Source of the DNA: a bacterium
GTDB lineage: Bacteria > Electryoneota > JAOADG01
Direction of reading: 5' to 3'
Assembly: GCA_030247525.1 (NCBI GenBank)
Contig: JAOTSC010000002.1
Location: 571-64,570 of the forward strand
Length of the DNA: 64,000 nt
A program made the translations under genes and the position numbers. The notes under the pieces were generated by a model, which had not been told where the DNA came from, did no database searches, and saw nothing but the letters and a program-made list of their open reading frames with translations. Every line of letters starts with the position of its first letter. The stretch's first letter is position 1. Positions 8,160 to 50,445 of the stretch are shown piece after piece.

Positions 8160-8245
8160 TGAACGACTCGAAAATAAAGTTTCAGACTCGATTTCAAGTT
8201 GTTACTGTAACCGCTGTTTGTTCGTTGTCTTGTGGGGAGGAGCCG

Positions 8246-13385: not shown

Positions 13386-13392
13386 GGATTGG

Positions 13393-13911: not shown

Positions 13912-14096
13912 TTGTAGTGGTGAATAATGCTTGAACTGCCGGTGTGAGATTTCACAATGCAGTTGGCAGTATTACACTACCACACCATTCGCGTAGTATT
14001 AAAGCGATCTTATAGCTAATCAATGCATCCTTTCCTTTGCGAAAATGATTCGAGGACTGCAAACGACGATTTGTTCTTGAATTCCCGGTTTCCGAT

Positions 14097-15587
14097 ATGC
14101 TAATAAAAAAATTCAGTTTGCGATACCGGATCATCGCCTCGATGGTCTTAGCAATGACGATACCCATTGCCATATCGAGCTGGATTTCGATGAACGAGCA
14201 CCGGGAGTTAATGATTGCACAACACAAGCGATATCAGCAGTCGCTGATACAACTCGCCTTGAACAGCGTCATGCTGTTTATGGACACCAACCACCCCACT
14301 GAAATCCACAACTCCCTGACAGGACTACGCGATGAAACCCACATCAAATCGATTCGAGTCATTTCCAATGAGGGTATAATTCGTTACAGCTCGAGTCATC
14401 ATGAAATCGGTTCTGCCGTTCCCGATTCGTTGTGGCGGCGCTTATCTAAGAAACCGATTGATATGAAGACGCAAGATGTCATCGATTTCACAAACCAAAC
14501 AATGACACTCGTTATGCGGATACCTAAGGAGCAGCGCTGTTTGGCTTGTCATGACGAACAAAGTCTCAACTTGGGTTACATAAGTATCGTCGACGACATA
14601 TCTAACATAAACACCGAGCTGAATATCCACCTTCGCGAATATTTAGTGTTATCGACCGGGATAATACTTACCGTCGTGTTGACGATATTTGGTATTCACC
14701 TCCGTTTTGTTCAGCGCAACATAAAGCACATGGGCGGCGCAATATCAAAAGTCGAGCGGGGCGATTTTCGCTCGCATATCCCGGTTGACGACTCAGAAGA
14801 GATTGGGACATTAGCGCGCTCGTTCAATGGCATGATCGATCGCTTGAATGTGATGCGCGAAGAGCTGCGGATTGCACACTTGAAGGAATTGGAACGTGCC
14901 GATAAACTTGCCAGTGTCGGGCAGTTGGCTGCGAGCATGGCACATGAGATAAAAAATCCGGTTGCCGGCATCTCCAGTGCGATGCAAGTCTTGATTGAAG
15001 ACCCCGATCAGGACCAGCAAAATGTCCAGATTTTTGAAGAAATCGCCCGTCAAGTAACACGCATTGATCACGCCGTGAATAGTTTGTTGTATTTTGCTCG
15101 ACCGAGTGAACCACGGATGTCATTCACTTCGGTTGACACCCTGTTGGAATTTTCGATGAAACTGATTCTTCAACAGGCACGACAAGCGAATGTAGTTGTC
15201 AAACAGCATGTGGATGAAAACATCCCGGAGTTGTATGTCGATCCCGGACAAATCGAACAAGTTCTGGTGAATCTTTCGATAAATGGCATTCAAGCAATGC
15301 CGTCCGGAGGTACATTAACGATTTCGGTGACATACCAAAAAGAGTCAGACAAGATATTCTTTCGAATCAACGATACCGGAGAAGGTATCCCACCCGAAAA
15401 ATTGAAAGAGATTTTCAAGCCGTTCTACACCTCCAAGCATAAGGGAACCGGTCTTGGACTATCGATTTGCACCGGTATCATTACCCGCCATGGCGGCGAG
15501 TTGTTTGTAGATAGTGTTGTAGGCGCTGGTTCAACATTTTCATTCGTTTTACCACGGGCTTCCCTTGCTTCCCAATCCAAGCTGTAG
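14097..15587 (+). CDS. Sensor histidine kinase with a c-type heme-binding motif (CLACH) in the periplasmic sensor domain
   Basis: Two TM segments flank a ~150-aa periplasmic domain containing CLACHDEQ. HAMP region, HisKA H-box (ASMAHEIKNPVAGI) and HATPase_c G-boxes (NDTGEGI, GTGLGLSI). Confidence 0.8.
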   Translation: MLIKKFSLRYRIIASMVLAMTIPIAISSWISMNEHRELMIAQHKRYQQSLIQLALNSVMLFMDTNHPTEIHNSLTGLRDETHIKSIRVISNEGIIRYSSSHHEIGSAVPDSLWRRLSKKPIDMKTQDVIDFTNQTMTLVMRIPKEQRCLACHDEQSLNLGYISIVDDISNINTELNIHLREYLVLSTGIILTVVLTIFGIHLRFVQRNIKHMGGAISKVERGDFRSHIPVDDSEEIGTLARSFNGMIDRLNVMREELRIAHLKELERADKLASVGQLAASMAHEIKNPVAGISSAMQVLIEDPDQDQQNVQIFEEIARQVTRIDHAVNSLLYFARPSEPRMSFTSVDTLLEFSMKLILQQARQANVVVKQHVDENIPELYVDPGQIEQVLVNLSINGIQAMPSGGTLTISVTYQKESDKIFFRINDTGEGIPPEKLKEIFKPFYTSKHKGTGLGLSICTGIITRHGGELFVDSVVGAGSTFSFVLPRASLASQSKL

Positions 15588-15728
15588 ATAACTTTTCCAG
15601 TAACCCCCTCTTAGCACTTGAATTAGAACCGTTTCTTATTAACTTACATTGCGAATCGGCTATCGAACTCACGATTCTTTTGAATCAGACCGATTAGCAA
15701 TGAAAGAACAATCATACAATTCCATTGC

Positions 15729-17129
15729 TTGTGGACAGGGGTGAGCGTGTCGGATTACAAAATCAAATTGTTGATCATCGACGATGAAAAGTTGATCGGC
15801 TGGTCGTTAGCCAAACAATTTGAAAAGGACGGTTATCAGACTTTTACAGCTTTGTCGGGGGAAGAAGGACTCGAAGTGTTCCGTCGGGAATCCCCGGAAG
15901 TGGTGTTCCTCGATAACCGGTTACCCAAGAAATCGGGATTGGAAGTCCTGAAAGAAATTCGACATCACTCACAATCCACCATCGTCATCTTTATGACTGC
16001 CTACGGATCTACCGAGACCGCCGTCGAAGCTATGAAACTCGGTGCCTACGATTATGTGAACAAACCGTTTCAATACAACGATGTCAATTCAATTGTCGAA
16101 CAAGCAGTTAAGGCAAACAAACTCGACGCGGAAGTTCTGGATATCCGTCGTAAGCTTATGAGCCGCTACGGTTTTTCCAGCATCATCGGCGAATCGAGCC
16201 AGATGATGCACATCTTTGAGATTATCCGAAAGATAACACATTCAGAAGCTTCGACAGTTTTGATTTATGGCGAATCCGGCACCGGCAAGGAAGTAGTCGC
16301 CCGGGCGATTCATTACGAATCAAATCGTTTCCAGAAACCATTTGTAGCGATTAACTGTGCAGCATTACCGGAAACCCTATTAGAGAGCGAGTTGTTTGGC
16401 TATGAGCGTGGTGCATTTACCGACGCCAAGCAGATGAAACGCGGACAGTTCGAGTTGGCGGAGGGGGGCACCCTGCTCCTCGATGAAATCGGTGAACTCA
16501 GTATCCAAATGCAGGTGAAATTACTTAGAGCGTTGGAAACCCGAACATTTAAACGACTGGGTGGTACACAGGACACCAAAATCGATGTCCGGGTCATAGC
16601 AGCGACGAATCGTGACCTTCAAGCAGCAATAGCTGAAGGGCGGTTCCGGCAGGATCTTTATTTTCGTCTGAAAGTCGTCACGGTGCAGCTTCCCCCTCTG
16701 CGAGAACGTCCCGAAGATATTCTGATACTGTCTACTTACTTCATTAATCACTTCAACAGGGAATTTTCCAAAAAAGTTACCGGACTTGATGAACCAGCTC
16801 GATGTGCAATGCTTGCGTACGAGTGGCCGGGAAATGTCCGTGAGCTCAAGAATGTGATTGAACATAGTCTCGTACTCGAAAATGATACCCTCATCCGGTT
16901 AGAGCATCTTCCAATAGAAATCCTTGGCAAAAAGCCTCAAAAAGTAGATCCCAGCGCTGTCCAATTAGAGTTTCCGGTCACCGGATTCCCTTTAGAGGAA
17001 ATCGAGAAGCTGGCAATCCAGAAAGCACTTAACTACGCCAACGGCAACCAATCAAAAGCGGCAGCTTTGCTTTCAGTCACCCGTGACACAATTCGTTACA
17101 AAATGAAGAAGTTCGGATTACTCGATTGA
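15729..17129 (+). CDS. Sigma-54-dependent response regulator (NtrC family: REC + AAA+ + Fis-type HTH)
   Basis: REC domain (LLIIDDE...FLDNRLP...), sigma-54 activator motifs (GESGTGKE, GAFTDA, ESELFGYERGAFT, LLDEIGEL) and C-terminal HTH. Confidence 0.85.
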   Translation: MWTGVSVSDYKIKLLIIDDEKLIGWSLAKQFEKDGYQTFTALSGEEGLEVFRRESPEVVFLDNRLPKKSGLEVLKEIRHHSQSTIVIFMTAYGSTETAVEAMKLGAYDYVNKPFQYNDVNSIVEQAVKANKLDAEVLDIRRKLMSRYGFSSIIGESSQMMHIFEIIRKITHSEASTVLIYGESGTGKEVVARAIHYESNRFQKPFVAINCAALPETLLESELFGYERGAFTDAKQMKRGQFELAEGGTLLLDEIGELSIQMQVKLLRALETRTFKRLGGTQDTKIDVRVIAATNRDLQAAIAEGRFRQDLYFRLKVVTVQLPPLRERPEDILILSTYFINHFNREFSKKVTGLDEPARCAMLAYEWPGNVRELKNVIEHSLVLENDTLIRLEHLPIEILGKKPQKVDPSAVQLEFPVTGFPLEEIEKLAIQKALNYANGNQSKAAALLSVTRDTIRYKMKKFGLLD

Positions 17130-17398
17130 GCGAGTTTTTCGGGAAAGCTGAGGATTTACGCGCAGGGAACTGGGTGATATTGCACAGTCCAATTCCGATG
17201 TGATAATTACCGGTCGATACCACCCCTTGGTATTTGCGGAAAAGAAGCATCTGAGTTGTCATCTTGGATGGTGTCGCCTGGCAAGAATTTTCAATAATGA
17301 TTTTATGTTGTTGTTATTATAGTGTTTATATTATACTAAGCTGATCATATCCCATTCGAGTCTTTCCTTCCCGGTCATCAGGTGAATTTCCGCATATA

Positions 17399-17414
17399 TG
17401 GCACACTCTTTGCC
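17399..17414 (+). promoter_or_regulatory. Sigma-54 promoter (TGGCAC-N5-TTGC) upstream of cytochrome cluster B
   Basis: Exact -24/-12 consensus TGGCACactctTTGCc, ~58 nt upstream of ATG 17472 and immediately downstream of the sigma-54 activator gene. Confidence 0.5.
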
Positions 17415-17471
17415 AATCTGTCGGTAGCTAAATAGGCTTTACCAACCCAAGGTATCGAAGGATTCCCAAGA

Positions 17472-18710
17472 ATGTTATATCACTCGAAACTCTCACGCAC
17501 CGGAACGATTTGCATCGTTGCACTCATGGTCGCCGTGACCATCACGTCTGCCCTTGCGCTTCCTTCCTTTATCCATGCCACTCGCACCCTTGACGGGATT
17601 ACCGTCCAGCCGGAGCGGGTCGCTGTAGCTCCCAATGGCATAGTTTATCTGTCCGAACCTCAAAGCAACCGGATCTTAGCTGTTTCGACCGAGGGGATCG
17701 TTGTGGGTTCGATTCCGGTTGCTAATGTAATCGCTGTTGGTGTTCTTCCGAATGGCTCACTACTTGCCAGCCACGGAACCCAAGTCGATTGCTACAATGC
17801 GAATGGCACTTTTCAATTCTCATTGGGTAACGGGATCGGCGAATTCAACAAGGCAGGCGAGATTGCTGTTGCAACCGATGGTTCGATCTATGTGACCGAT
17901 ACCCGCCAACACGTTGTCAAAGTATACCAACCTGATGGAACTTTCCGGTTTGCATTCGGCAGCCGTGGTTCCGCCAACGGACAATTTGTATTTCCGACCG
18001 GCATCGCCCTAAGCGCAAACGAAACCGAAGTTTTTGTTGCCGATCAAGGCAATAGCCGCATCAACGTATATAGCCGCACCGGCAGCTATCTTCGTAGTTT
18101 CGGCCGTGCAACCTATCAAGTCGGTTCAAGCTGGGTATTTGATGGTACGTTTACCCGCGTTCAGGGAATTTCGGTCGATCAACTGAATCGACTCTACATT
18201 TCTGATTTGTATCAGAATGATGTACAAGTTCTTTCAGCCCAAGGCGAATTCTTAGGCAGAATCGTTCCTGGAACCAGTCTTCCCTTCGCTCATCCTGCAG
18301 ATTTGGTCGTAAGTGGTAACCAACTCTATATCCTTTCGACTTTCTCGAATCAAGTGTTCGCATATTCCATCGATGGCGTTACCAGTGTCAACAATCCAGC
18401 CGCCGCGATTGTTTCGCACTTTGCGCTGAATAACAATTATCCCAACCCCTTTAATGGTACGACTCGAATTCCGTTCGCCCTTAAGCAAAACGGTAAAGTA
18501 TCGTTGACCATTTGGAACGTACTGGGTCAGCAAGTCGGTACTCTCATCAATGCGAATATGAATGCGGGATACCATGAAGTCGTTTGGAACACTACCTCCG
18601 GCAGCTACGGCGCAGTGACCAGCGGTGTTTATTATTGCAAACTTTCCGTTGTCGACGAATCCGGAACCTCTCTTTACCAGTCGACCGGTAAAATGCTCTT
18701 TTTGAAGTAA
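17472..18710 (+). CDS. NHL-repeat beta-propeller protein with T9SS C-terminal sorting domain
   Basis: Signal peptide. NHL-like repeats (YVTD..., VFVAD..., YISD...). C-terminal NNYPNPFNGTTRIPFALKQNGKVSLTIWNVLGQQVGTL (T9SS CTD). Confidence 0.7.
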   Translation: MLYHSKLSRTGTICIVALMVAVTITSALALPSFIHATRTLDGITVQPERVAVAPNGIVYLSEPQSNRILAVSTEGIVVGSIPVANVIAVGVLPNGSLLASHGTQVDCYNANGTFQFSLGNGIGEFNKAGEIAVATDGSIYVTDTRQHVVKVYQPDGTFRFAFGSRGSANGQFVFPTGIALSANETEVFVADQGNSRINVYSRTGSYLRSFGRATYQVGSSWVFDGTFTRVQGISVDQLNRLYISDLYQNDVQVLSAQGEFLGRIVPGTSLPFAHPADLVVSGNQLYILSTFSNQVFAYSIDGVTSVNNPAAAIVSHFALNNNYPNPFNGTTRIPFALKQNGKVSLTIWNVLGQQVGTLINANMNAGYHEVVWNTTSGSYGAVTSGVYYCKLSVVDESGTSLYQSTGKMLFLK

Positions 18711-18734
18711 CCGATTTTACTAAGTCTCTACACA

Positions 18735-20381
18735 ATGGAGCGATTCTCAATGTTTTTGAAAAAACATCTTTTCATAGCGATTGCGGTGGTATGCGCATTG
18801 ACTTCTGTTGCCCTTTCGGAAGTAAATGAGCTTCAAGCTCCGCACGATGCGACGAACGCGATGGCATGCGCCAGTTGCCACGTACCTTATAATACAGTGC
18901 CACAACCGGTTCCGGAGAATTGGTTAACCACTTCGGTTTGCCAAAGCTGCCATACCAGCGGTGGTGTTGCTTCCAACATGAAAACTCACGTCGCCAATGC
19001 CGATACCGTATGGTGCCAGACTTGCCACGATCCGCACATGCACCAGACGACGTATCCCCGTTGGTATGTCAAGAATCAGATCATCACTCCGAATAGCGGC
19101 GCTCGTCCGTCGGTAATTCGTGATTCGCTTGACCTGATGCACGGCGCCACTGGTGTGGTTCAACCCTATGATGGTGTTTGTGAAACCTGCCACACTACTA
19201 CCCCGATTTTCCGCAACAATGCTTCGGGTCTGCACCCGACTACTGCTGCGTTGATGACCCATGAAGGTTCGGACAAGTGCACGAACTGTCACCAGCACAA
19301 GAACGGCTTCCAGTCTTCGACCAGTGCAAACACCTGTTTCGCTTGCCACTCCGCTTCCACGAATTCAGTCCGCGATACATCGTTGCATTACACCGCGTCG
19401 AATATGTACAGCCGTTTCGATACGCTGCGCACCACTTCTCACCCGGTTCGCAAGCTCTATGACAATGGACGCTTTGTGTTCGCCAAGGTGGAAGGCAATG
19501 CCGCAATCACGACCAAACTACTTCGTACGCCGTCATGGTTTTCTGGTACATCTTTAACCAGTTCATCCATGATCACCTGTACGGATTGCCACGGTGACTC
19601 TGCCGCAACCGCTTCGAAGGGTATGCATGGCTTGAGCTATCCAATGATGGAAGAGACGACCGCAGTTGCACTTCAGTTGCGTGCCAGTTTACGCCTCGGT
19701 ATGAATCAGGAATACGGTCCCAACTACGATCTGACTGGTAACGCTCTGTGCTATGCTTGCCATACCCCGGAATACTATCGACTGAGCGCTTCTGCTCGTC
19801 CGACCGGTTTCATGCGTTCAGACTCGAATCGTTGGTCCCGTCACTATTCGCACGTCGTGTACCACAATGCGAATACTCAGGAACGTCAGGAAAACTGCGT
19901 GACTTGTCACGGTGTCCATGGTGGCGCCACGACAGCACAAGATACTACGTTCCCAATAAATCGTGCATACGGTCGCACAGGCTTAATCCGTTGGTCGAAG
20001 CAAGCAACCGGTTTGGTGTTTGAACACGGTCAGACTGGTCCGGACTCCATTACCGTTCCAGACTCTACCTTGAAGACTGCGTTAACCGGCGGTTCGCCGC
20101 AAATCGCAACTGGTTATAAATCAGCTGCGTACGGATATTTCAAGTTCAAGAACAAGACCTATGATCGCACAATTCCACCGTTGTTACAAACAATGTGGAA
20201 TCTACGAGATACCGCTATCGTGAACGTAGCTGGTGATACCATTGCTGATTACTACCTTGGCTTCTGCTACGTCAATTGCCATACTGGTAAGGATCTTCCA
20301 ATGGTTGCTGGTGACACAGTTGGTACAAAGCATCCGAATAATCACTACGGTCGCTCTGTTTCCTATCGCATTTGGCGATAA
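18735..20381 (+). CDS. Multiheme c-type cytochrome with 9 CxxCH plus 1 CxxxCH motif
   Basis: Signal peptide. CASCH, CQSCH, CQTCH, CETCH, CTNCH, CFACH, CTDCH, CYACH, CVTCH and C-terminal CYVNCH (CX3CH). Confidence 0.8.
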   Translation: MERFSMFLKKHLFIAIAVVCALTSVALSEVNELQAPHDATNAMACASCHVPYNTVPQPVPENWLTTSVCQSCHTSGGVASNMKTHVANADTVWCQTCHDPHMHQTTYPRWYVKNQIITPNSGARPSVIRDSLDLMHGATGVVQPYDGVCETCHTTTPIFRNNASGLHPTTAALMTHEGSDKCTNCHQHKNGFQSSTSANTCFACHSASTNSVRDTSLHYTASNMYSRFDTLRTTSHPVRKLYDNGRFVFAKVEGNAAITTKLLRTPSWFSGTSLTSSSMITCTDCHGDSAATASKGMHGLSYPMMEETTAVALQLRASLRLGMNQEYGPNYDLTGNALCYACHTPEYYRLSASARPTGFMRSDSNRWSRHYSHVVYHNANTQERQENCVTCHGVHGGATTAQDTTFPINRAYGRTGLIRWSKQATGLVFEHGQTGPDSITVPDSTLKTALTGGSPQIATGYKSAAYGYFKFKNKTYDRTIPPLLQTMWNLRDTAIVNVAGDTIADYYLGFCYVNCHTGKDLPMVAGDTVGTKHPNNHYGRSVSYRIWR

Positions 20382-20412
20382 TTCGCACTACTTTGTTGTA
20401 ACTTTCTAAAAG

Positions 20413-20442
20413 CAGGGTATCGGGCAACCGATACCCTGTTTT
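20413..20442 (+). terminator. Rho-independent terminator after the 10-heme cytochrome gene
   Basis: CAGGGTATCGG-gcaa-CCGATACCCTG followed by TTTTA. Confidence 0.5.
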
Positions 20443-20492
20443 ACATGGATTTGTTCCCACAAGTGATAAAGCAGTATTGATGCAAAGGAACG

Positions 20493-20508
20493 TGGGTGTT
20501 ACATTGCA
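20493..20508 (+). promoter_or_regulatory. Possible sigma-54-type promoter upstream of the NHL lipoprotein gene
   Basis: TGGgtg-ttaca-TTGCA with GG-N10-GC spacing, ~70 nt upstream of ATG 20577. Weaker match than the other two. Confidence 0.3.
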
Positions 20509-20576
20509 GTTCATGTTATGAAGGTATCGTTTCGGAGCTGACGACTCCACATCCATTTTGACGGGAGTTACTCGTA

Positions 20577-21626
20577 ATGAATCCGGCAAAGACTTTTTTG
20601 CTTTTCACCTTGTTTACCTCACTCACACTTTTTTCTGTGGGTTGCGCTCCCAAACAGGCAATCAAACCCGATTTAGTCTGGCCGTCGGCACCGGAAAAGC
20701 CAAGGATAAAATTTCTACGAAGCATCCAAGGTAAGAGCGATTTCACTACATCCAAGATGGATGCTTTCAAGAAGACGTTAGCGGGTGAAACATCATTAGA
20801 ACGGGTAGTGAAGCCCTACGGATTAGCGATTGACAGCAAGGGACGCCTACTTGTAGCTGATGCCGGAAATCGTTGTGTGTTGGTGTTCGATGAGAATGCG
20901 AAGAAATCAGGCGACATCCTCACTTATATCGGAACAAGCGGTGCCGGTCAATTGACAGAGCCGGCAGGAGTTGCGGTCGACGATGAGGATCGAGTTTACG
21001 TGACCGATGTTCGACTAAATGCAGTGTTTGTTTTCGATGCAGAAGGAAACTTACTTCGCAATATCAAAGACACAGTAGCGTTTCAACGTCCTGCAGGTAT
21101 CGCCTATAACAAAGTCACACAGGAGATTATCGTCGTCGATACGAAAGCGTATCACGCGAAATGCTTTCGGAAAGATGGCTCGTTCGTTCGGACGATTGGA
21201 ACAAAAGGAAGCCGGGAAGGTGAGTTTAATCTTCCCAGTAACATCGTTTGTGACACCGATGGGTACATTTATATCGTCGATACAATGAATTTCCGGGTAC
21301 AGGTTTTCGATAAAGATGGTAAATTTGTTTCGACCTTTGGACAAGCGGACAACGTACCCGGCAGTTTTTCGCGGCCACGTGGCATCACTGTCGACAGCGA
21401 TAACAACATCTATGTCGCCGACGCGGCTTTCGATAACATACAGATATTTCAGCGTGACGGGTCATTGCTTTTATACTTCGGGGCGGCTGGTAAAGGGGAT
21501 GGACAGTTTCAGTTACCGGCGGGTTTATGTTTCGATCAAAAAAACCGCTTGTATGTCGCCGACCAGTACAATGGTCGGGTACAGGTTTTCCAATACATCC
21601 AATACAAAGCGGAAACGGGCAAATAG
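20577..21626 (+). CDS. NHL-repeat lipoprotein (paralog of 7089..8159)
   Basis: Lipobox (FSVGC). Six NHL-like repeats. C-terminus ...RVQVFQYIQYKAETGK parallels the paralog. Confidence 0.7.
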   Translation: MNPAKTFLLFTLFTSLTLFSVGCAPKQAIKPDLVWPSAPEKPRIKFLRSIQGKSDFTTSKMDAFKKTLAGETSLERVVKPYGLAIDSKGRLLVADAGNRCVLVFDENAKKSGDILTYIGTSGAGQLTEPAGVAVDDEDRVYVTDVRLNAVFVFDAEGNLLRNIKDTVAFQRPAGIAYNKVTQEIIVVDTKAYHAKCFRKDGSFVRTIGTKGSREGEFNLPSNIVCDTDGYIYIVDTMNFRVQVFDKDGKFVSTFGQADNVPGSFSRPRGITVDSDNNIYVADAAFDNIQIFQRDGSLLLYFGAAGKGDGQFQLPAGLCFDQKNRLYVADQYNGRVQVFQYIQYKAETGK

Positions 21627-21640
21627 TCTTTAGTACTACT

Positions 21641-23017
21641 CTATTCTTCCAGTTTCTTTCGCTGTCGGGTTTGGAATAAGACCACTGTGAGACCGACCAT
21701 TAAAACGATACAACCGGCGTACACAATGGTGGTTCCCGGGTCGTAGGATACGGTAAACACCGATATTTTCGGCGGTCCGGGTATCACGCTGTATTGGTAG
21801 ATTTTCCAACCGTGATACGTTAACGGCGCGTTCATTTCGATGTCATACGCGAAGGAACTCGCCGATCCCTCATTCACCGTCACCTCACTCGAGATCCCTG
21901 CAGCGATTTTGTTGCCGGGATAATACTTCTGATTGACTTTGTTTAGACGTAGTGCAAATCCCAATTCATCGGTGTGGGAAGTCAAACGAAACAGAACATC
22001 GTTGTGGTTAGAAGCGAGTTCCGAATTCTTCTTCATCCAGAATGCATTTGATCGCCCGCCCGTAGGATCTTCGATTCGGAATTTTAATGCAAACTCGCCT
22101 TCGCCGCTTTTTGCCGGGACAAAATTCCTCATCTGCACCGCAAAACTCTCTAAGGAGCGTACCGTAACGGTATTGATACTGTCAAGTACCAGTTTCTGTC
22201 CAAGCGAAATCGGTTGCAGAATGGGCTGTGGCGCATGGACGGCGAGATAGGATAAATCGGATTCGGTTGCAACCAGTAAATAATCTGCAGGCGCTTCCAG
22301 CAGATAGGACATATCCATTTTATCGCGGGGAACAAAGGCGAACAGCAGTTTTTTGCCATTCGGCAACATGACTTCGCCATCCGGTCCATCGCCACACCAC
22401 AATTGCTTATCGACTTCTTTTCCCAGTGCTTCCAACGTTACATCAATGAGCGGTACACCGGTTGGATCGGAGACGTAGGTGAGTTTTCCCACTCCCGATG
22501 GGAGGTAGCGGAGTAGTTCGATCCGGCCTTTATTGAAGGGGAGGTCGATACGTTTCGGTCGTCCGTCTTCTGAGCGCGGAATTGTCTCAAAGCGAAGCGG
22601 TAACACCGCCGAACGACCATCGGATAACTGAACTTCCAGTTGATAAGAGTTGCGGTTGAGTAGCCTTGTTGACTCGCCTTCCGCTAACTTAATTGTTCCC
22701 TCGATACTGTATTCCCGACTGATAACCGCACCAATTAACACGACAAGTACACCGGTATGAGTCATCAACCACCCGATTTGCCCGATCCGATAGGGAAACC
22801 GTTGTACGGTACATGCGATGAGATTGACTGCTAATAAACCCAACAGAAAGTCAAACCAGATGCTATGGTAGATGTCGAGTTGTGCCAGCAAAGTTCCTGC
22901 CGTTGCTTCATACGCAGTCCCGGTCATCATCGCAAGCGCAATGACGACGAGCAGGACAATCGTCAACTGGATCGAGGCAAGAAAGCGATAAATCTTGGCA
23001 AGCAATGTTACTCCCAT
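21641..23017 (-). CDS. ResB/CcsB-like cytochrome c biogenesis (System II) protein
   Basis: ResB-like topology: three N-terminal TM helices, a large periplasmic domain, and a C-terminal TM (TIVYAGCIVLMVGLTVVLFQ). N-terminus resembles ResB (..IVLLVVIALAMMTGT...). No ccsA/resC partner in the window. Confidence 0.5.
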   Translation of the reverse strand: MGVTLLAKIYRFLASIQLTIVLLVVIALAMMTGTAYEATAGTLLAQLDIYHSIWFDFLLGLLAVNLIACTVQRFPYRIGQIGWLMTHTGVLVVLIGAVISREYSIEGTIKLAEGESTRLLNRNSYQLEVQLSDGRSAVLPLRFETIPRSEDGRPKRIDLPFNKGRIELLRYLPSGVGKLTYVSDPTGVPLIDVTLEALGKEVDKQLWCGDGPDGEVMLPNGKKLLFAFVPRDKMDMSYLLEAPADYLLVATESDLSYLAVHAPQPILQPISLGQKLVLDSINTVTVRSLESFAVQMRNFVPAKSGEGEFALKFRIEDPTGGRSNAFWMKKNSELASNHNDVLFRLTSHTDELGFALRLNKVNQKYYPGNKIAAGISSEVTVNEGSASSFAYDIEMNAPLTYHGWKIYQYSVIPGPPKISVFTVSYDPGTTIVYAGCIVLMVGLTVVLFQTRQRKKLEE

Positions 23018-25541: not shown

Positions 25542-25799
25542 TCACTGTAACGTTGGATGATAGGTTGAAAAAGTCGGGTGTCCTTTGTGGCAATTTTGGT
25601 GATTGGTCCGAATCACAGCCATAAAGTCACCCGGTTTTGTTAGGAACATTAATCGTGACTCGATCACTAGCCCGGTGTACTTTTGGGTACGCCAGTTATG
25701 GAAAAAGTGTTCTTTGTGATAGATACTGAGCTGTTCGATGGGGTTCAGTTCGGATGAGTGATTCGGCAGATACTTCGGTTCAATGTGATGGCATTGCAA
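25542..25799 (-). pseudogene. IS630/Tc1-mariner family transposase relic (C-terminal fragment only)
   Basis: LPNHSSELNPIEQLS matches the hallmark (Y)SP(D/E)LNPIE(H/Q)LW motif and the C-terminal tail of IS630 DDE transposases. The remaining ~250 aa are missing. Adjacent 25800-26390 is AT-rich and ORF-poor, consistent with a decayed element. Confidence 0.55.
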
Positions 25800-28674: not shown

Positions 28675-29505
28675 ATGCGAATAGTAATTGCATTATTTTC
28701 AATTCTTCTCATGATTAATATATTGCATGCCCAACCGACCCTCGAGTGGACATCGCCGACTGTACCGAGTACTGGGCAAGCGGGCTGGTTCTATTATACC
28801 GTCGATACATGGCGGTTCTATACGATGGATGGCACGAATCTACGGGTGATGTCCGGCCCGGAATCGAGTACTCCCGCCTTAACGATTCCGTTGCAGACCG
28901 GGGAGTACAACGCCTACTCCTACATCGAAGTAACCGGCGACGGGATATACGACATCGTGATTTTCAAATATGTGACAGTAGGCAGTAACATCAAGTTCTC
29001 ACTCCGAATCGTCGATCAAACGAATGGCGCGAATGTCATTACGTTCGACAATGCCAATTACTCCTATTTATTGAATACCGTCCTCGACATCGATCACGAT
29101 GGCTTCACCGAATTGGTAGTGGAACGTTCCCCCTTTCCCCCGGCTTCCCCTGACAATTTCAATTTTCTGGTCTACCAAACCAACGGGACTTCGGTCGAGC
29201 AACGTGAGATTCCCACTTTGCCACAGCAAATCGGTCTCGCGAATTATCCTAATCCCTTCAATCCTGCAACCAAGATTACTCTCACGCTGTCGCAACCGGC
29301 GTTGTCACTAACCGCCACGATTTACGATGTCAGTGGTAGGCGGATCAAACAACTGATGCTGGGACAACGGGTAGCAGGTACACACGAGATTGGGTGGGAT
29401 GGTACCGACGAGAACAACCTCCCGGTCGTCAGCGGTACCTACTTTTGCCAAATCAGTGAGGGAACTACTACCTTACAGGCACGTATGATGCAACTTGTTC
29501 GGTAG
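28675..29505 (+). CDS. Secreted FG-GAP-like protein with T9SS C-terminal sorting domain
   Basis: Signal peptide. GDGIYDIVIF / DHDGFTELVV FG-GAP-like motifs. C-terminal NYPNPFNPATKITLTL...IYDVSGRRIKQL (T9SS CTD). Confidence 0.6.
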   Translation: MRIVIALFSILLMINILHAQPTLEWTSPTVPSTGQAGWFYYTVDTWRFYTMDGTNLRVMSGPESSTPALTIPLQTGEYNAYSYIEVTGDGIYDIVIFKYVTVGSNIKFSLRIVDQTNGANVITFDNANYSYLLNTVLDIDHDGFTELVVERSPFPPASPDNFNFLVYQTNGTSVEQREIPTLPQQIGLANYPNPFNPATKITLTLSQPALSLTATIYDVSGRRIKQLMLGQRVAGTHEIGWDGTDENNLPVVSGTYFCQISEGTTTLQARMMQLVR

Positions 29506-30798: not shown

Positions 30799-31824
30799 GT
30801 GTCGCATACTCATACGGTAACCCGTTGGAAACACGATCACACCTTTGGTCAGGATGTCCGAAAATCGGGTGAACTGAAGACACGAATCGTCATTGTTATC
30901 ACCGCGATTACGATGGTGGTTGAGATATTCGCCGGGGTGTATTTCGGATCGATGGCGCTGCTTGCCGACGGTCTCCACATGGGCTCCCATGCGTTGGCAT
31001 TGGGGATTGCCGCCTTCGCCTATTACTTCACCCGCAAGTATGCCAACGACCGCAGTTTTAACTTTGGCACCGGCAAAGTCAATTCATTGGCGGCATTTGC
31101 CAGTGCGATTTTACTGGTTGTTGTCGGTCTCGCGATGGCGTGGTAAAGCGTCGCTCGATTACTTAAACCGATAGATATCGAATTCGATCAAGCAATCATT
31201 GTCGCAATCATTGGGTTGATTGTCAATGGAATTTGTCTATTGATCCTTGGAGCGAAACATCACGACCATGACGTATCGACTTCCCACGATCATCATCACC
31301 ATCATGACCATGAACATGAGCATCCGCACTCCCACGATCATCATCACGACGACCACGACCATGAACACCAACCCGATACTAACGAGTTAAAACACGACCA
31401 CAATTTGCTCGCGGCGTATCTCCATGTGCTAACTGATGCCTTGACTTCGGTCTTGGCGATTGTTGCCTTGCTTGCCGGGAAGTATTTCGGGTGGGTGTGG
31501 CTCGATGCCGCGATTGGATTGCTGGGAGCGGTACTCGTCGCTAAATGGTCAATCGGATTACTCTTTTCTTCGGCGAATGTACTACTCGACAAACAGGCGC
31601 CGGCGGAAATGCACGAGCAAATTCGGTCCGCCATTGAAATCGGTGAGCAGAAAGTAACCGATCAACATATCTGGTCGGTTGGACCGAATATCTATGCCGC
31701 CGAGATTTCGATTGTCACCTCCGACCCCCGCGAACCGGAATACTACCGAGGACTATTGCCACAACATTTACGGTTGGTTCACGTTACGATTCAGACTCAT
31801 CACTGTAAAGACCAATCGTGTTGA
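30799..31824 (+). pseudogene. Cation diffusion facilitator (CzcD/ZitB-like) metal efflux gene interrupted by an in-frame TAA (31144..31146)
   Basis: ORFs 30799..31146 and 31216..31824 share one frame and together form a complete CDF: TM1-4 (..ALLADGLHMGSHALALGIAAF..), His-rich loop (HHDHDVSTSHDHHHHHDHEHEHPHSHDHHHDDHDHEH), TM5-6 (LAAYLHVLTDALTSVLAIVALLAG) and C-terminal domain. The single TAA falls where CDFs have a conserved Glu (..MAW[*]SVARLLKP.., expected ..AWESVERLL..), consistent with a GAA-to-TAA change. Confidence 0.65.
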
Positions 31825-33652: not shown

Positions 33653-33961
33653 ACGAAACCTCTCATTCCAGTACTAAGGCAATTCTCATCCTTAACTACT
33701 TGAAAATCCTTGCCGAAATCTGTCGTTTTCGTGCATTTTGTTTGTCATGATATTAACGTCGAATAAACAAAATGCTCCTCACCGAGATTTCAACGAGAAA
33801 GGCAACAACAAGCTGCCAATTACCTCGCGCTTTAGCAATATACTGTCGTAAAATTGAAAATTCTCTTGGATTGGTTTGCATAGCTTCTTACCTTTCGACA
33901 TTAGGTGAATTTTTTCTTTCACCACGGGAAACTTTGCATTGTCTATTGGAAAGGAGACGGA

Positions 33962-36028
33962 ATGAAAATTCGCGCTTTGATAATGTCCGCAGTCGCCTTG
34001 GTGCTCATGCTGAATGTGAGTGCTGAAGCGTATCCGCGAAGCGCTGTGATGATCGAAGATTACACCAGCACGACTTGAGGCCCCTGTGCGTCGGCCCATA
34101 ACTGGCTCGACCCGCTCCTCACGTCGTGGGGAACGAACGCTCAATATGTTGGTTACCACATGAATTGGCCGTCTCCCGGAAACGATCCGTGGTACGCTGC
34201 CAATCCGACCCAGAGTCTCGAACGAAGAAACTACTATGCAGTGAATGCTACGCCTACGTTTAAAGTGGACGGAGCTACTGCATCGATTTCTTCCAGTTCT
34301 ATTTCGAATTTGTACAATCAACGACGCGCCGTCAATTCACCGGTATGGTTTGATCTGAGCGCTCGGATGACCACTGGTGATTCGCTGGTGTTAACAGTCC
34401 GCGCGGTTGCCGAATCTCCGATTAGCGGCAACTATCGTCTCAAGACTTACTTACTGGAAGTCCATGAGCAATGGAGCCCCGCCGCACCCAATGGTCAAAC
34501 CAGTTTTGATTATCCGTTTGTGATGGCAGCTCCCTCGGTCGCAGGTGTTCCCTTTACTCATAGCGGTAGCACCTCCGATACGTTAATCTTCGAGTCGCGT
34601 TTTCCACCTCGCACGACCGGTCAACAACCCTACACCGTCGATAATTGCGGATTCATCGTTTATCTCCAGAACGAAACAGCAGTCGGTACAACCAAGGAAA
34701 TCGTGCAGGCGAAGTTCCTCCGGATGCCGTTAGACTTCCCAAGCTTATCGATTGCAACAACTGCTGCAGTTGATTTAAACGGGAATTTGGACGGTCGTAT
34801 CGACGATGGAGAAAATGGTAGAATCACTGCTTCTATTACGAATGGTACCTATTTCGCTCCGGCGGCGAATGCGCGTGCAATTCTTCGCACAACGGTACCC
34901 GGGATAATCATTACCGATAGCACGTCTACTTTTGGTTTGGTGAATCCGGGTGCAACGATTTCCAATGATGCCGATCCGTTCCAAATAGCTGTTACGGCTG
35001 GAACACCGGTACAATGGGCGACCTTTACATTGGTGATGTTAGCTGATGGCGATTATGTCAATTCATCTACTTTCCGGGTACGAATCGGTAGACCGGATTT
35101 GCTCCTGGTGCAAGCGGACTCTTCTTTTGACTTCAGTTCGCAATACACCACTGCATTGACCAGTTCGCTGATCGACTACGACCTCTGGGATAAAGATGTA
35201 AGCCCACTTGACGAAGTGGAAATGAATCGTTATCCCAATGTCATTTGGTTCACCGGTATGCGTTCGACAAACGTTCTCACGGTTGTCGACCGGACGATGA
35301 TAGGCGATTACATCGATGATGGCAAAAACTTCATGCTTTCGAGCCAGAATGCCTTGGAGTATCTGATGTCGGTCGATTCGGTGTGGGCACAAACCTATCT
35401 CAAGGCGAACCTTGTGATGAGCCGTTTGACGAATTACACTATGAACGGCATTGTGGGCGATCCCTTCTTCGGGAATCTGACGGTACGTACGGCAGGTGCC
35501 GGCGGTGCCGGTAACTGCGACAATGCGACGGTAATGACGCCCCGCGCTGGAGCGACTGGTATCTTAATGTACAATGGCCGTGCCGACTTCGCCGGTGTGT
35601 ACTACTACACCCCGAGTACCAGCGGTCATGTTCTTTTCCTCGGAATTCCTTTCGAAGCGATTAGTGGAGCCCAAAGCACAATGACCCGCGAATTGTTTAT
35701 CCAACGCGCGATGTTGTTCTTGAACTCGACCAACGACGCACCGGAATCTCCGACGGAACTTCCGACTTCTGTTCGCCTCTCGGAAGCATATCCCAATCCG
35801 TTCAACCCGACGTCTACGGTGAAGCTCTCATTACCGCGAACATCGGTTGTGAATGCTGTCGTTTATGACCTAGCCGGACGAGAAACAAAATCGATTACTC
35901 GCGCTCCGTTCGCGGCTGGCGAGCATACGATTGCAGTCGATCTCAACAACCAACCAAGTGGGATTTACTTCTTGCATGTGGAAGTAAACGGCGTAACGAA
36001 TATTCGAAAACTCGTGTTAATGAAGTAA
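33962..36028 (+). CDS. Candidate selenoprotein: secreted thioredoxin-fold domain (UGA-encoded Sec in T-U-G-P-C motif) fused to a large T9SS-sorted body
   Basis: ATG 33962 encodes a canonical Sec signal peptide (MKIRALIMSAVALVLMLNVSAEA). It is in frame with ORF 34160..36028, separated by one TGA (34076..34078). Read-through gives ..AVMIEDYTSTT-U-GPCASAHNWLDPLL...VGYHMNW...YYAVNATPTFKVDG, which aligns with a thioredoxin fold (beta1 -> CGPC -> helix; cis-Pro loop IPTLLLFKNG). Candidate hairpin 34086..34115 lies 8-37 nt after the TGA. C-terminus YPNPFNPTSTVKLSL...VYDLAGRE is a T9SS CTD, and the 34160 ORF alone has no signal peptide. Confidence 0.5.
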
Positions 36029-36048
36029 GAGTTTTCTTATCAGCCGAG

Positions 36049-36087
36049 AGCGAGGCGTCCTTCGAGAGGACGCCTCGCTTTTTTTCT
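36049..36087 (+). terminator. Rho-independent terminator
   Basis: Perfect 12-bp stem AGCGAGGCGTCC-ttcgaga-GGACGCCTCGCT followed by TTTTTTTT. Confidence 0.65.
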
Positions 36088-36604
36088 CTCCGGTCTAATC
36101 GATCCTTGCTCGGTCGCAACGATGAGGAGTGAAGATAAATCATCACATCTTCGGAAGTGCTTTGATGAAGCGGCTTTGCTGTCTCATCCCCGTGATTGAA
36201 CATCAGATTTACTCGTTTCTAACAGTCAGTAATTTTGCGTTTGAGGTTAAAAAGCAAAGATATTTCTCTTCGCTACGTGGAGAATTTTGACGAAAAATTT
36301 CTCATTGCCTCTTGCATTCGCGCGTAAGATGAAGTATCGTTAGGAAGTGTTGAGGATGCGTCCACATTTTCACTTTGAAGAAGAGGATTTGCATCGAACC
36401 GGAACCGGGAAATTCGCTTTCACGCTTCCGAAAACACAACCGAATCATTGTACGCGAAACCTTCCCCAGTTCGTCGACAATGCTTCGGAGCAGGGCACCA
36501 CGATCGGAAGAGGAGAGCCGGTCACGGTGATTAGCTAAAGGGGACGAGGCACCACACGGTGCGTCGCTAGTTACTGAACTGACAAACCTCGTAGGGAGTG
36601 AACG

Positions 36605-37066
36605 ATGGCAGAAATGGCAAAGAAGCCGGCAGTCAAGAAGCCCGCAGTTAAAAAACCTGCAGCGAAAAAAGCCGCGCCGAAGAAAGCCGTAGCAAAGAAG
36701 GCTGTTGCACCGAAGAAGGCAGCACCCAAGAAAGCTGCACCGAAAAAAGCCGTAGCACCGAAGAAGGCTGCGCCGAAGAAAGCTGCACCGAAGAAGGCAG
36801 CACCGAAAAAAGTAGCACCGAAGAAGGCAGCACCGAAAAAAGCGGTAGCACCGAAGAAAGCTGCACCGAAAAAAGCTGCACCGAAAAAAGTAGCACCGAA
36901 GAAGGCAGCACCGAAGAAAGCAGCACCGAAGAAGGCAGCCGCTCCGAAGAAGGCAGTTGCTCCGAAGAAAGCAGCGCCGAAAAAAGTAGCACCAAAGAAA
37001 GCTGCACCGAAGAAGGTTGCACCGAAGAAGGAAGAAGTTCCGCCTGCACCACCGCCGGTGATGTAA
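36605..37066 (+). CDS. Histone H1-like / AKKAAP-repeat nucleoid-associated protein
   Basis: 153-aa protein made almost entirely of (A/V)(A)PKK(A) repeats, as in Hc1/Hc2, BpH1 and AlgP H1-like proteins. RBS GGAGTGAA upstream. Terminator immediately downstream. Confidence 0.7.
   Translation: MAEMAKKPAVKKPAVKKPAAKKAAPKKAVAKKAVAPKKAAPKKAAPKKAVAPKKAAPKKAAPKKAAPKKVAPKKAAPKKAVAPKKAAPKKAAPKKVAPKKAAPKKAAPKKAAAPKKAVAPKKAAPKKVAPKKAAPKKVAPKKEEVPPAPPPVM
36620..37030 (+). repeat. DNA tandem repeat (units of about 15/30 nt: GCACCGAAGAAGGCAGCACCGAAAAAA...) encoding the AKKAAP repeats
   Basis: About 27 near-identical in-frame repeat units are visible directly in the sequence. Confidence 0.7.
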
Positions 37067-37088
37067 TTCGGTCGCTTCTAATTGATTG

Positions 37089-37128
37089 AACAACCCCTGT
37101 CGCTTCCGATGGGGGTTGTTTTTATTTT
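37089..37128 (+). terminator. Rho-independent terminator of the H1-like gene
   Basis: CAACCCC-tgtcgcttccgatg-GGGGTTG followed by TTTTTATTTT. Confidence 0.55.
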
Positions 37129-48303: not shown

Positions 48304-50445
48304 GTGAAGAGAATGAGATTGCTTACAGCGGTTGCGCTGTTAGCGTTCGCCGGGTTGGCATTCGGGCAATTGACCGGTGCAAAGACGATTAATTTTGCCG
48401 CGCCGACCGCTGGAAATAACTACCAAACCTTTGCCGCTGCAATCACAGCCTTGAACGCTTCAGGTGTCGGTGCTGGCGGCGTTACGTTTACTGTCGCTTC
48501 GGGAACTTATGCCGAAGCAGCTTTGATAATAACTACTCAGACAGGAACCGCCGCCAATCCGATTAAATTCGTGAAGGGCAGCGGCACCGTAACGATTAAC
48601 TCCTCGGCGAGTGGTGTAGGATCCGCTGCGGTTAGATTATTCGGCGCAAGGTATGTTGAATTCGATGGTATCGATGTCAGTGCCGCAAACGCCATTTACG
48701 GTTACGAGATGCTCAACACTGCCGCAGCAGGTGCTGGTGCAAGAAATAACACGATCCGTAATTGCACAGTCACGGTGAACAAAGCAAGCGCAGCAACTCG
48801 TGTCTTGATCTCCAACTCGAATTCTGCTACCAACGCGAGCGCCATCAATCACAACAACTCGTTTATCAACAACATCGTTCATAACGGAGTTGGTGGTATT
48901 CGTCTTACCTCCGCTCCCGGCTTCCTTCAGACCGGAAATGTCGTAATGGGAAATCAAGTCGGTGTTGGCGTAGCCAACGACATTAGCGGTACCAGCTATG
49001 TGAAGGGTATTCACGCCGCGTACCAAAATGGCGTCACGATTACCGACAACATCGTTGCCAATGTAACGACAACTTCGGCTGGCGCAGCTGCCGCAATTGG
49101 TCTCGAAGATGCCGCTGGTATCCATGTCGAATTATCGAGCGGTACGATCACCATCGCGCGAAATGAAATCTCGGCGATTTCCTCCACTGGTAACAACTCT
49201 TTCCGTTCGACCTTTGGAATTATTGCTGTTCCGAATGTCGGTGGCGGTAACGTTGCCAATATCTACAACAATATGATTACTGGTATTACGCACAGCCGCA
49301 ACGTCGCTACCTCGACGTTTTCCGGTGCGCCGACTAACACGAACCCGGGTTATGGTTGCTTCGGCATCTATGTAGCAACCGGTACTGCCAACGTCTATCA
49401 CAATAGCGTTTTAATGAATGGCTCCAACTTGGTGTCGTCGGCCGCTTACTGGAACGGTGGCGCAACAGCCAATGTTCGTAACAATATTTTCGCGAACATC
49501 GTTGCCGCCCAACTGACACCGAAGCACTACGGCTTCTGCCGTACTGCCGGCACAGTAACCGCCGATTACAACAACATCTATGTAGTGAACGCCAACGGTT
49601 TTGTCGGTCGCGATGGTACCACTGACAAGGTGGACGAAATTGCTTGGAATGGAACTGGTTACGGCGCGAACAGCGTTTACACGGATCCGTTGTTTATCAG
49701 CGGCACTGACTTGCATATCCAAGTCGCGAGCGATTCGCCAGTATCGAATGCCGGTGTCGATCTTAGCGCAACCGTTGCCGACGACATCGACGGTGATGTT
49801 CGTACGATCACGCCGGATCTGGGTGCGGATGAAGGTGAATTCAGTGTCGTACTTCCAGTTGAATTATCTTCTTTCCTTGCTACTGCCACGGCAGAAGGTA
49901 TTGAGCTACGCTGGCGAACCGAAACCGAAACCGATAACGACCACTTCGTCCTTGACCGCTGGGTTGATGGCAACGAAGAAGATATTCAAACGGTTTCGAT
50001 TTCAAGCTTGAGCCGGAATGGAAACAGCAGTGTCGCATTGAATTACTTCTACCGCGATACTCGCAACTTACTTCCCGGCAACATCTACCATTACCGTTTA
50101 TCGGATGTCAGCCTTTCCGGTGACCGTCGATTGTTGCAGGTGATTACTGTCAACAATTCCGCCACCGAAATCGTTGTCCCCCGTGGGTTTGGTTTAGTGG
50201 AAGCGTTCCCGAATCCATTCAATCCGACTTCGACGATAAAAGTGCAGTTGCGTAATCCCGGTTTAGCCACGGTAGCTGTCTACAATGCCGCTGGTCAATT
50301 GGTACAAGAACTGTATCAAGGCAAAATGGGTATCCAACCCATGAGCTTCCAGTTCGACGCCAGCAGCCTTGCTACCGGCGTATATCTGGTACGGGTGACC
50401 AGCAGCGATTTCTCCACCCAGAAGAAAATTGTCTTAATGCGATAG
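48304..50445 (+). CDS. Secreted right-handed beta-helix (pectate-lyase-fold) protein with T9SS C-terminal sorting domain
   Basis: Signal peptide (MRLLTAVALLAFAGLAFGQ). Parallel beta-helix repeat signatures (NNIVHNGVGGIRL, GNVVMGNQVGVGV, ITDNIVANV). C-terminal AFPNPFNPTSTIKVQLRN...VYNAAGQLVQEL. Confidence 0.65.
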   Translation: MKRMRLLTAVALLAFAGLAFGQLTGAKTINFAAPTAGNNYQTFAAAITALNASGVGAGGVTFTVASGTYAEAALIITTQTGTAANPIKFVKGSGTVTINSSASGVGSAAVRLFGARYVEFDGIDVSAANAIYGYEMLNTAAAGAGARNNTIRNCTVTVNKASAATRVLISNSNSATNASAINHNNSFINNIVHNGVGGIRLTSAPGFLQTGNVVMGNQVGVGVANDISGTSYVKGIHAAYQNGVTITDNIVANVTTTSAGAAAAIGLEDAAGIHVELSSGTITIARNEISAISSTGNNSFRSTFGIIAVPNVGGGNVANIYNNMITGITHSRNVATSTFSGAPTNTNPGYGCFGIYVATGTANVYHNSVLMNGSNLVSSAAYWNGGATANVRNNIFANIVAAQLTPKHYGFCRTAGTVTADYNNIYVVNANGFVGRDGTTDKVDEIAWNGTGYGANSVYTDPLFISGTDLHIQVASDSPVSNAGVDLSATVADDIDGDVRTITPDLGADEGEFSVVLPVELSSFLATATAEGIELRWRTETETDNDHFVLDRWVDGNEEDIQTVSISSLSRNGNSSVALNYFYRDTRNLLPGNIYHYRLSDVSLSGDRRLLQVITVNNSATEIVVPRGFGLVEAFPNPFNPTSTIKVQLRNPGLATVAVYNAAGQLVQELYQGKMGIQPMSFQFDASSLATGVYLVRVTSSDFSTQKKIVLMR

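Follow-up and report, generated by a model that had tools for sequence, protein, structure and literature searches.

A 64,000-nucleotide stretch of bacterial DNA (contig JAOTSC010000002.1 of assembly GCA_030247525.1), referred to below as the window, contains at 33962-36028 of its forward strand a reading frame that begins with a signal peptide, is interrupted by one in-frame TGA and ends in a type IX secretion system (T9SS) sorting domain. This locus raises the question of whether the TGA terminates translation or is decoded as an amino acid. We conclude, with a probability of roughly 0.86, that positions 33962-36028 constitute a single gene for a 688-residue selenoprotein exported by the T9SS, in which the UGA at 34076 is read as selenocysteine in a UxxC motif.

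The frame extends from ATG 33962 to TAA 36026-36028 and contains 688 sense positions, with TGA 34076-34078 as its sole interruption. The initial annotation, made from the letters of this DNA, had described a 38-codon signal-peptide open reading frame (ORF) ending at the TGA, with the frame running on into a 622-codon ORF, and this was confirmed in the sequence. The 38 sense codons between ATG 33962 and the TGA encode MKIRALIMSAVALVLMLNVSAEA/YPRSAVMIEDYTSTT (the slash marks the inferred signal-peptide cleavage), and the read-through product continues as ..VMIEDYTSTT-U-GPCASAHNWLDPL.., then ..YHMNWPSPGNDP.. and ..VNATPTFKVDG... As judged by eye, the signal peptide belongs to the product only with read-through of the TGA. 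Selenocysteine and Cys homologues alike keep a hydrophobic leader with (Y/F)(P/D/E)R behind it. The program-made ORF list splits the gene into 33905..34078 and 34160..36028 (622 aa), with no bridging ORF, and the 622-residue product, a protein of a metagenome-assembled genome (MAG), is named 'T9SS type A sorting domain-containing protein [bacterium]' at NCBI. TGA terminates 14 of the 46 long ORFs of the window, in agreement with the earlier statement that it otherwise serves as a stop there, and scanning this DNA for further cases of TGA read-through gave no convincing candidate; therefore, the organism uses the standard code.

Homologues were collected by a search with the 622-aa part, followed by scans of metagenome and genome collections that added 65 loci. 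The TGA is shared by an independent assembly of this organism (L001, assembled by Logan from run SRR20819803), in which the locus shows 1 mismatch over 5,022 nt. Three orthologues at approximately 50% identity (P0008, P0009 and P0010) and three remoter relatives whose C-terminal half differs (P0014-P0016) start at the equivalent Met, inside the motif YHMNWPSPG. P0011 and P0013, with approximately 65 additional residues, have the sequences TSSTCPPC and TSTTCAPC, respectively. In the DNA of the six short homologues, we found an in-frame upstream signal peptide, YPR(T/A)VLLEEFTS(T/S)T, TGA and then xxCAxAHxWLDP. Altogether, 13 distinct genes, drawn from different assemblies and at 28-60% identity, carry the TGA at this codon, with the flanks conserved on both sides: the window gene, L002-L007, the second gene of L010/L015/L064, L023, L065, L066, L073 and L076. 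One of these, L066, is a complete MAG chromosome (CP070707.1). All 13 genes have a leading signal peptide and a terminal T9SS sorting domain. The motifs of the selenocysteine forms are UGPC, USYC, USPC, UAPC, UPFC, UPGC, UPAC and UGGC, and approximately 49 homologues carry TGT or TGC at this codon, their Cys being aligned with the TGA in a motif TS(S/T)T-C-x-x-C. Cys-containing orthologues, which the initial annotation had proposed to look for, are thus at hand, and the sense codon or indel in TGA-bearing orthologues that would have spoken for an error was not what we observed, since diverged orthologues keep the TGA.

The frames around the TGA are intact. Six genes with a complete 5' end among the window gene and L002-L007 read through to 684-731 residues, L005 being cut at a contig edge, and intact frames of 672-809 codons with a signal peptide and an end resembling the T9SS C-terminal domain (CTD) were found in L064, L023, L065, L066, L073, L076 and one Cys paralogue. 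Within the 12 codons after the TGA, pairwise differences number 67, 52 and 135 at codon positions 1, 2 and 3; therefore, this stretch evolves as coding sequence. In one genome, two tandem paralogues lie 2.4 kb apart, one with Cys (TGT; L015 3112) and one with selenocysteine (TGA; L015 5575; L064 4107 and 6570 are the same pair), and both are intact, with 738 and 745 codons, respectively. The 939-kb contig that carries this pair, Ga0265314_10000004, also encodes the Cys orthologue P0011. Downstream of the gene, the window, L002 and L004 share genes for TatD, an FAA-family hydrolase, DapF and a rhomboid protein, and for this reason L002 and L004 are regarded as true orthologues; these conserved neighbours are housekeeping genes and offer no hint as to function.

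These data bear on two simpler explanations of the locus. One is that the TGA is a true stop, produced by a nonsense mutation, in a pseudogene or by a sequencing or assembly error in a gene that normally encodes Cys. A single base change converts TGT or TGC into TGA, Cys is found in most homologues and the public annotation takes the TGA as a stop, but the same TGA is present in 13 distinct genes from different samples with no other lesion wherever the full frame was examined, the independent assembly agrees, the flanks evolve as coding sequence, and structured RNA is conserved specifically after the TGA forms, as described below. The other is that two genes are present, a 38-residue leader peptide ending at the TGA and a 622-residue protein starting at ATG 34160, which is exactly the split that gene callers predict. 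The 27 codons between the TGA and ATG 34160 are, however, conserved as protein and homologous to internal sequence of the Cys forms; the 622-residue product has no signal peptide, though T9SS cargo needs one; no motif comparable to the ribosome-binding AGGAG before ATG 33962 could be read upstream of ATG 34160; and Met67, the start used in this split, lies inside the most conserved motif of the family, YHMNWPSPG. The recurrence of the TGA, the intact frames and the coding-type evolution together leave no room for a sequencing error, a pseudogene or a pair of independent genes, and we consider a true stop to be very improbable and the two-gene arrangement to be hardly credible.

GenBank and gene callers cut this gene and its relatives at Met67, and the signal peptide and the active site are lost from annotation. 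A full-library search with residues 67-259 gave 473 relatives, and 43 of the 150 best clusters start at or just before the HMNWP motif. Among eight short-start representatives checked in DNA, six have the TGA (the window gene, L006, L007, L023, L073 and L076), and the other two are Cys forms with apparently miscalled starts (L075 and L077, proteins P0184 and P0268). A truncated start was thus rejected as a stand-in for the selenocysteine form, being only approximately 75% reliable (6/8). Of the 150 family clusters closest to the window protein, approximately one in five may be affected by this truncation. At L077 7000-7170, in-frame stops (TGA 7000 and TAG 7015) lie just upstream of the LFESFTSSTCGPC block in P0268, and the gene before it extends to 7106; the cause could be a frameshift, a gene fusion or a start that was called wrongly.

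The fold was analysed using an AlphaFold2 model of the Cys orthologue P0011, which has 49% identity to the window protein; the model was based on a 36-sequence alignment and has a mean predicted local distance difference test (pLDDT) score of 84.7. Its layout consists of the signal peptide, an alpha/beta region (25-130), two beta-sandwiches (133-258 and 266-380), a second alpha/beta region (385-590) and the sorting domain (610-691). Thioredoxin-type elements in the model are strand 28-34 (beta1), C38xxC41, helix 48-55, the invariant Pro98 and strand 99-102, and we thus found in it each feature of the thioredoxin fold that was looked for, namely beta1, CxxC, a helix, a Pro before beta3 and an alpha/beta sandwich. 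The best fold matches of the model were HBP35 and DUF1223. A thioredoxin fold with the TGA at the nucleophilic Cys had been proposed in the initial annotation, and the structure prediction and fold search agree with it: the U-x-x-C motif, whose first residue is encoded by the UGA, follows strand beta1 of a predicted thioredoxin-like domain. The T9SS sorting domain proposed earlier was likewise recovered, with both profiles scoring above their curated cut-offs: Por_Secre_tail (PF18962) matched the C-terminal 76 residues at 34.5 bits (cut-off 27, E 2.5e-8) and TIGR04183 matched the C-terminus at 37.9 bits (cut-off 23, E 1.3e-9). Further proteins with T9SS sorting domains are encoded in the window at 5-1540, 17472-18710, 28675-29505 and 48304-50445; given four more CTD proteins in 64 kb, the organism would so appear to rely heavily on type IX secretion.

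Proteins of this kind are already known. The GOS_C selenoprotein family has been on record since 2008 (Zhang & Gladyshev, PMC2398784), and the NCBI model NF045500, 'Omp28-related selenoprotein', appears as 'Hypothetical protein GOS_C' with the motif UxxC in a 2026 review of prokaryotic selenoproteomes (PMC13188914). Consequently, a secreted selenoprotein is less unusual than the initial annotation had held. The window protein resembles GOS_C/NF045500 in its predicted thioredoxin-like fold, UxxC motif, many Cys homologues, kinship with Omp28 and a hairpin after the UGA similar to the bacterial selenocysteine insertion sequence (bSECIS), as compared at the level of motifs. It differs in length, being approximately double the size, in carrying a further beta-sandwich as well as an amidotransferase-like and a T9SS sorting domain, and in source, GOS_C coming from marine surface water and the window-type genes from unclassified 'bacterium' MAGs. 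NF045500 matched residues 26-113 of the window protein, including the UxxC, at 19 bits (cut-off 200), and matched the orthologues and Cys homologues at 15-51 bits. Because 19 bits is below the cut-off of 200, the window protein is not a member by NCBI's rule and therefore appears, as far as its sequence tells, to be a distant relative of this family. Similarly, Pfam Omp28 (PF11551) scored 18.4 bits, below its gathering score of 34.9, and structural and profile similarity to the Omp28 structure 2R2C is present. Omp28 proper (PF11551/NF033782; PDB 2R2C) is a lipoprotein, and DUF1223 corresponds to PF06764 (PDB 2AXO).

HBP35 of Porphyromonas gingivalis is a characterized Cys analogue with the same export route and a precedent for the proposed protein. 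It is a T9SS cargo with a C-terminal domain, the recombinant protein reduces insulin faster than Escherichia coli thioredoxin, and the C48S/C51S mutant is inactive, insulin reduction running through C48/C51 (PMC2907840). Compared with the window protein, HBP35 (PDB 5Y1A; PMC2907840, PMC3120885) has Cys rather than selenocysteine, lacks the second beta-sandwich and the amidotransferase-like domain, and binds haemin. Sequence similarity between the two is not detectable: HBP35 was not among the profile matches in PDB at E <=10, and its identity in the structural alignment is 10-12%. Exported UxxC selenoproteins of the DsbA-like, DsbG-like and thiol:disulfide interchange types (PMC13188914) are also extracytoplasmic proteins of the thiol-disulfide oxidoreductase type in which selenocysteine replaces the nucleophilic Cys, but they belong to other families and are periplasmic rather than T9SS cargo.

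Two hairpins, A and B, follow the UGA (positions are counted with the U of UGA as +1). The initial annotation had described a hairpin 8-37 nt past the codon with an 8-bp upper stem and an AUAACU loop. This hairpin, A, does exist, but RNAfold gave an upper stem of 7 bp with one bulge and the loop CAUAACU, folding as (((.(((((((.......))).)))).))) at +11..+40 with dG -11.4 to -12.6; its lack of the canonical apical G, also mentioned earlier, holds for this loop. All the selenocysteine genes have a hairpin whose apex falls at +22..+31, formed from differing sequences. In eight window-clade sequences, a model of A plus B paired in 88% of cells, and its covariation was 0.207 compared with 0.112 in shuffles (0/500 reached this value). 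In hairpin B, pairing holds for 89% of cells, and compensatory changes are seen at two of its pairs (U-A/C-G/G-C and G-C/A-U/U-A), which occur while the encoded peptides differ (LLTSWG, LLAAQG, LLSGTG). Across the family, hairpin B is formed by at least five unrelated sequence solutions. The Cys paralogue of the tandem pair (L015/L064) keeps a 7-bp hairpin at +36..+56.

We compared selenocysteine and Cys sequences by counting uninterrupted stems of at least 6 bp with the loop centre restricted in position. Stems at +47..+51 (hairpin B) were found in 11/14 selenocysteine and 6/49 Cys sequences (p=5e-6), or in 11/13 and 2/20 when only sequences of at least 50% G+C were counted (p=3e-5), and stems at +22..+31 (hairpin A) in 6/14 and 0/49 (p=4e-5), all three being Fisher p-values that are optimistic given the shared ancestry of the selenocysteine sequences. 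Folding energy was rejected as a discriminator: raw minimum free energy (MFE) favoured the selenocysteine genes (p=2e-5), but the difference vanished as a z-score (p=0.14). It was replaced by the position-restricted stem counts because of this loss and because Cys genes have chance hairpins. A long-range stem pairing +7..+14 with +49..+56 around hairpin A was likewise discarded, performing no better than shuffles (76.6% paired; covariation 0.105 versus 0.104), and a search of the window at Rfam gathering thresholds found no family.

In the more distant members, too, hairpins occupy these two places, with unrelated sequences. These are CUGAUCCA-GUUG-UGGAUCAG in L023, CUGAUCC-CGUGUU-GGAUCAG in L066, CGCCGC-AGGU-GCGGUG in L065 and CAAGCCGC-GGU-GUGGCUUG in L003, with two hairpins each in L073 (AUCGUC-AACUAC-GGCGAU and UCCUUG-CGAUU-CAAGGA) and L076 (GAGCG-AUCC-CGUUC and GCCCUACA-GAG-UGUAGGGC). 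According to the bSECIS rules, the loop has 3-9 nt with a G in its first two positions, the spacing is 16-37 nt and the MFE is <=-7.5 (PMC13188914). Like the consensus bSECIS of the E. coli fdhF type, the window hairpins lie in the coding sequence directly 3' of the UGA, and four family members fit all the rules; the window gene differs in that its correctly spaced hairpin has no loop G and its G-first loop belongs to a hairpin 44 nt off, outside 16-37. Specifically, hairpin A has a spacing of 18 and a dG of approximately -12 with a loop lacking G, and hairpin B has the loop GUC and a dG of -9.4 with a spacing of 44. In L003, L023, L065 and L066, hairpin A meets every bSECIS rule and hairpin B is weak, absent or without G. 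In the window clade, L073 and L076, a group made up of the window gene, L002, L004-L007, L015, L073 and L076, the A loops (CAUNNNU, AACUAC, AUCC) have no G, and the B loops are G-first (GUC, GGC, GGG, CGGGU, CGAUU, GAG) at a spacing of 43-44 nt. This complementary pattern of loop G suggests that hairpin B took over the loop function in the window clade, L073 and L076.

We favour the hypothesis that SelB binds hairpin B in the window gene, with folded hairpin A shortening the path to it from the UGA. The main competitor, to which we assign a substantial but smaller-than-even chance, is that hairpin A alone is the SECIS and hairpin B is unrelated, for example a translational pause element or a case of apparent covariation. 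The canonical spacing (18 nt) and acceptable energy of hairpin A are in its favour, as are L003, L023, L065 and L066, where hairpin A (loops GGU, GUUG, AGGU and CGUGUU) meets all the rules while B is weak or absent; set against these are the lack of the required G in the A loop of the window clade, L073 and L076, where the B loops are G-first, and the restriction of compensatory changes to hairpin B. The earlier proposal of hairpin A as the recoding signal is therefore retained in part: it is enriched in selenocysteine genes, but it is probably not the whole signal, as hairpin B covaries and has a G-first loop. A broader proposition joins this layout to the export route: that the clade uses a two-hairpin recoding signal, with the SelB-binding loop 43-44 nt past the UGA (outside 16-37 nt) and a spacer hairpin between, and that the protein would be the first selenoenzyme for which delivery to the bacterial surface by type IX secretion is shown. 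We put this forward tentatively, as somewhat more doubtful than probable.

A different question is which amino acid is inserted. The UGA might be recoded to Cys or another standard amino acid by a Cys-charged tRNA-Sec-like tRNA or by SECIS-independent suppression. In a few bacteria, UGA is proposed to be naturally recoded to Cys with the help of SelB-like factors and tRNA-Sec-like tRNAs, sequence analysis cannot tell the inserted amino acid, and no sel genes were found in the window or the related loci. However, selenocysteine/Cys pairing at the nucleophilic CxxC position together with downstream hairpins is the classic signature of bacterial selenoproteins (PMC13188914, PMC2398784), GOS_C, a related family, counts as an accepted selenoprotein, and a need for Cys can be met by TGT or TGC, as the same-genome paralogue shows. 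We therefore regard recoding to a standard amino acid as unlikely.

Several observations weigh against the selenoprotein assignment. The structure is that of the Cys orthologue P0011 and not of the window protein, and the pLDDT of its CxxC loop is only 65-80. Neither window hairpin fully fits the bSECIS model (PMC13188914), the folding z-scores from dinucleotide shuffles do not separate selenocysteine from Cys genes, some Cys genes carry chance hairpins, and common ancestry, as stated above, inflates the stem comparison. In addition, no selA, selB, selD or tRNA-Sec gene was found in the window or in approximately 603 kb of related loci, a result that is uninformative, being expected for a sample this small. 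ARAGORN found no tRNA gene in the window and no tRNA-Sec across the related loci, and tblastn with E. coli SelD, SelB and SelA-fragment queries, a weak test, gave no match in the same sequences.

On the assumption of a selenoprotein, the following pathway can be proposed. By the established bacterial mechanism, SelB and Sec-tRNA(Sec), recruited by an mRNA hairpin just downstream, would insert selenocysteine at the UGA; the candidate recruiting hairpin would be A or B, preferably B with folded A shortening the path. The pre-protein would cross the inner membrane via the Sec translocon, with cleavage of the leader probably after AEA, and the C-terminal sorting domain would direct it through type IX secretion to the cell surface or the medium, the C-terminal domain being removed. 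By analogy with HBP35, the selenol/thiol pair may act as a thiol-disulfide oxidoreductase or as a thiol- or metal-binding centre, and the beta-sandwich and amidotransferase-like domains presumably hold a substrate or partner. The features of the gene are listed in Table 1.

Table 1. Features of the predicted selenoprotein gene and its surroundings in the window
Feature	Position	Strand	Basis or remark
Shine-Dalgarno-like AGGAG	33952..33956	+	5-nt spacer to ATG 33962; read from sequence
Full selenoprotein gene (predicted), 688 codons including one selenocysteine codon, plus TAA	33962..36028	+	one frame, single internal TGA
Sec-type signal peptide MKIRALIMSAVALVLMLNVSAEA	33962..34030	+	read from sequence, by eye; putative cleavage between AEA and YPR
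Thioredoxin-like domain plus Omp28-type beta-sandwich, residues ~24-258	34031..34735	+	
UGA read as selenocysteine (U39)	34076..34078	+	same codon TGA in 13 distinct genes; ~49 homologues TGT/TGC
U-G-P-C redox motif	34076..34087	+	second Cys invariant in all selenocysteine and Cys forms
Hairpin A, loop CAUAACU	34090..34111 (+15..+36; with lower stem 34086-34115)	+	RNAfold
Hairpin B, UCCUCAC-GUC-GUGGGGA, candidate SECIS apical hairpin	34116..34132 (+41..+57)	+	G-first loop, 44 nt past UGA
ATG used as start in public annotation (Met67, within conserved YHMNWPSPG)	34160..34162	+	NCBI product P0007, 622 aa; eight homologues truncated at the equivalent point
Second beta-sandwich	34745..35089	+	approximate bounds from P0011 model (all-beta 266-380, pLDDT >90)
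Alpha/beta domain, class-I glutamine-amidotransferase-like/ThuA-like fold	35102..35722	+	approximate bounds
T9SS type A C-terminal sorting domain	35789..36016	+	PF18962 and TIGR04183 above cut-offs
Intrinsic terminator, 17-bp stem then T run	36046..36089	+	3' of gene

As a thioredoxin-fold UxxC selenoprotein related to Omp28, the window protein is of a kind already known, and exported thioredoxin-fold selenoproteins are known too. What is new, to judge from the comparisons above, is a putative distinct long multi-domain subfamily outside the curated NF045500 model, and a predicted selenoprotein as T9SS cargo. In the literature library searched, nothing relevant linked selenoproteins with type IX secretion, or Omp28 with selenoproteins. 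The systematic annotation of these genes as proteins that lack their N-terminus is a further new point. Possibly, a non-canonical SECIS layout is also new. The Omp28/GOS_C selenoprotein superfamily would thereby be extended to long multi-domain T9SS cargo in uncultured bacteria of the Fibrobacterota-Chlorobiota-Bacteroidota (FCB) type. The natural selenocysteine/Cys pairs with two hairpin layouts offer a test of the SECIS-UGA distance limit, which bears on SECIS-based gene finders, and an extracellular selenol raises the question of its reductant and target.

Other features of the window were recorded in addition. Between the terminator of the selenoprotein gene and TatD, a 153-residue ORF at 36605-37066 (+) consists nearly entirely of KKAAPKKA-type Lys/Ala/Pro repeats and resembles histone H1/Hc1; small unannotated ORFs lie in the equivalent place in L002 (5935-6330) and L004 (3528-3896), and the antisense ORF at 36302-37093 is probably an artefact of the Lys/Ala/Pro repeat. 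Upstream, 31216-31824 (+) encodes a DmeF-type cation diffusion facilitator metal efflux protein with a very His/Asp-rich N-terminal stretch (HDHDVSTSHDHHHHHDHEHEHPHSHDHHHDDHDHEH). The match of this ORF as listed is confined to the C-terminal half of the DmeF model (positions 130-308 of 309), which could mean that the gene starts further upstream or is incomplete. An 85-residue ORF with LPNHSSELNPIEQ at 25542-25799 (-), in a 2-kb stretch of short ORFs only (25.5-27.5 kb), resembles the C-terminal end of DDE transposases of the IS630/Tc1 type and is probably what remains of a transposase. Finally, the region 3898-23017 contains a cluster of multihaem c-type cytochromes with doubled CXXCH (3898-4548, 4632-5384, 8156-9949, 9949-11241 and 18735-20381), NHL beta-propeller proteins among the cytochromes (7089-8159, 17472-18710 and 20577-21626), an OmpA-domain protein (11217-13385), ResB (21641-23017, minus strand) and, by the look of the N-terminal sequences alone, a sensor kinase and a response regulator (14097-17129). 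From its gene content, this region looks like an extracellular electron-transfer module.

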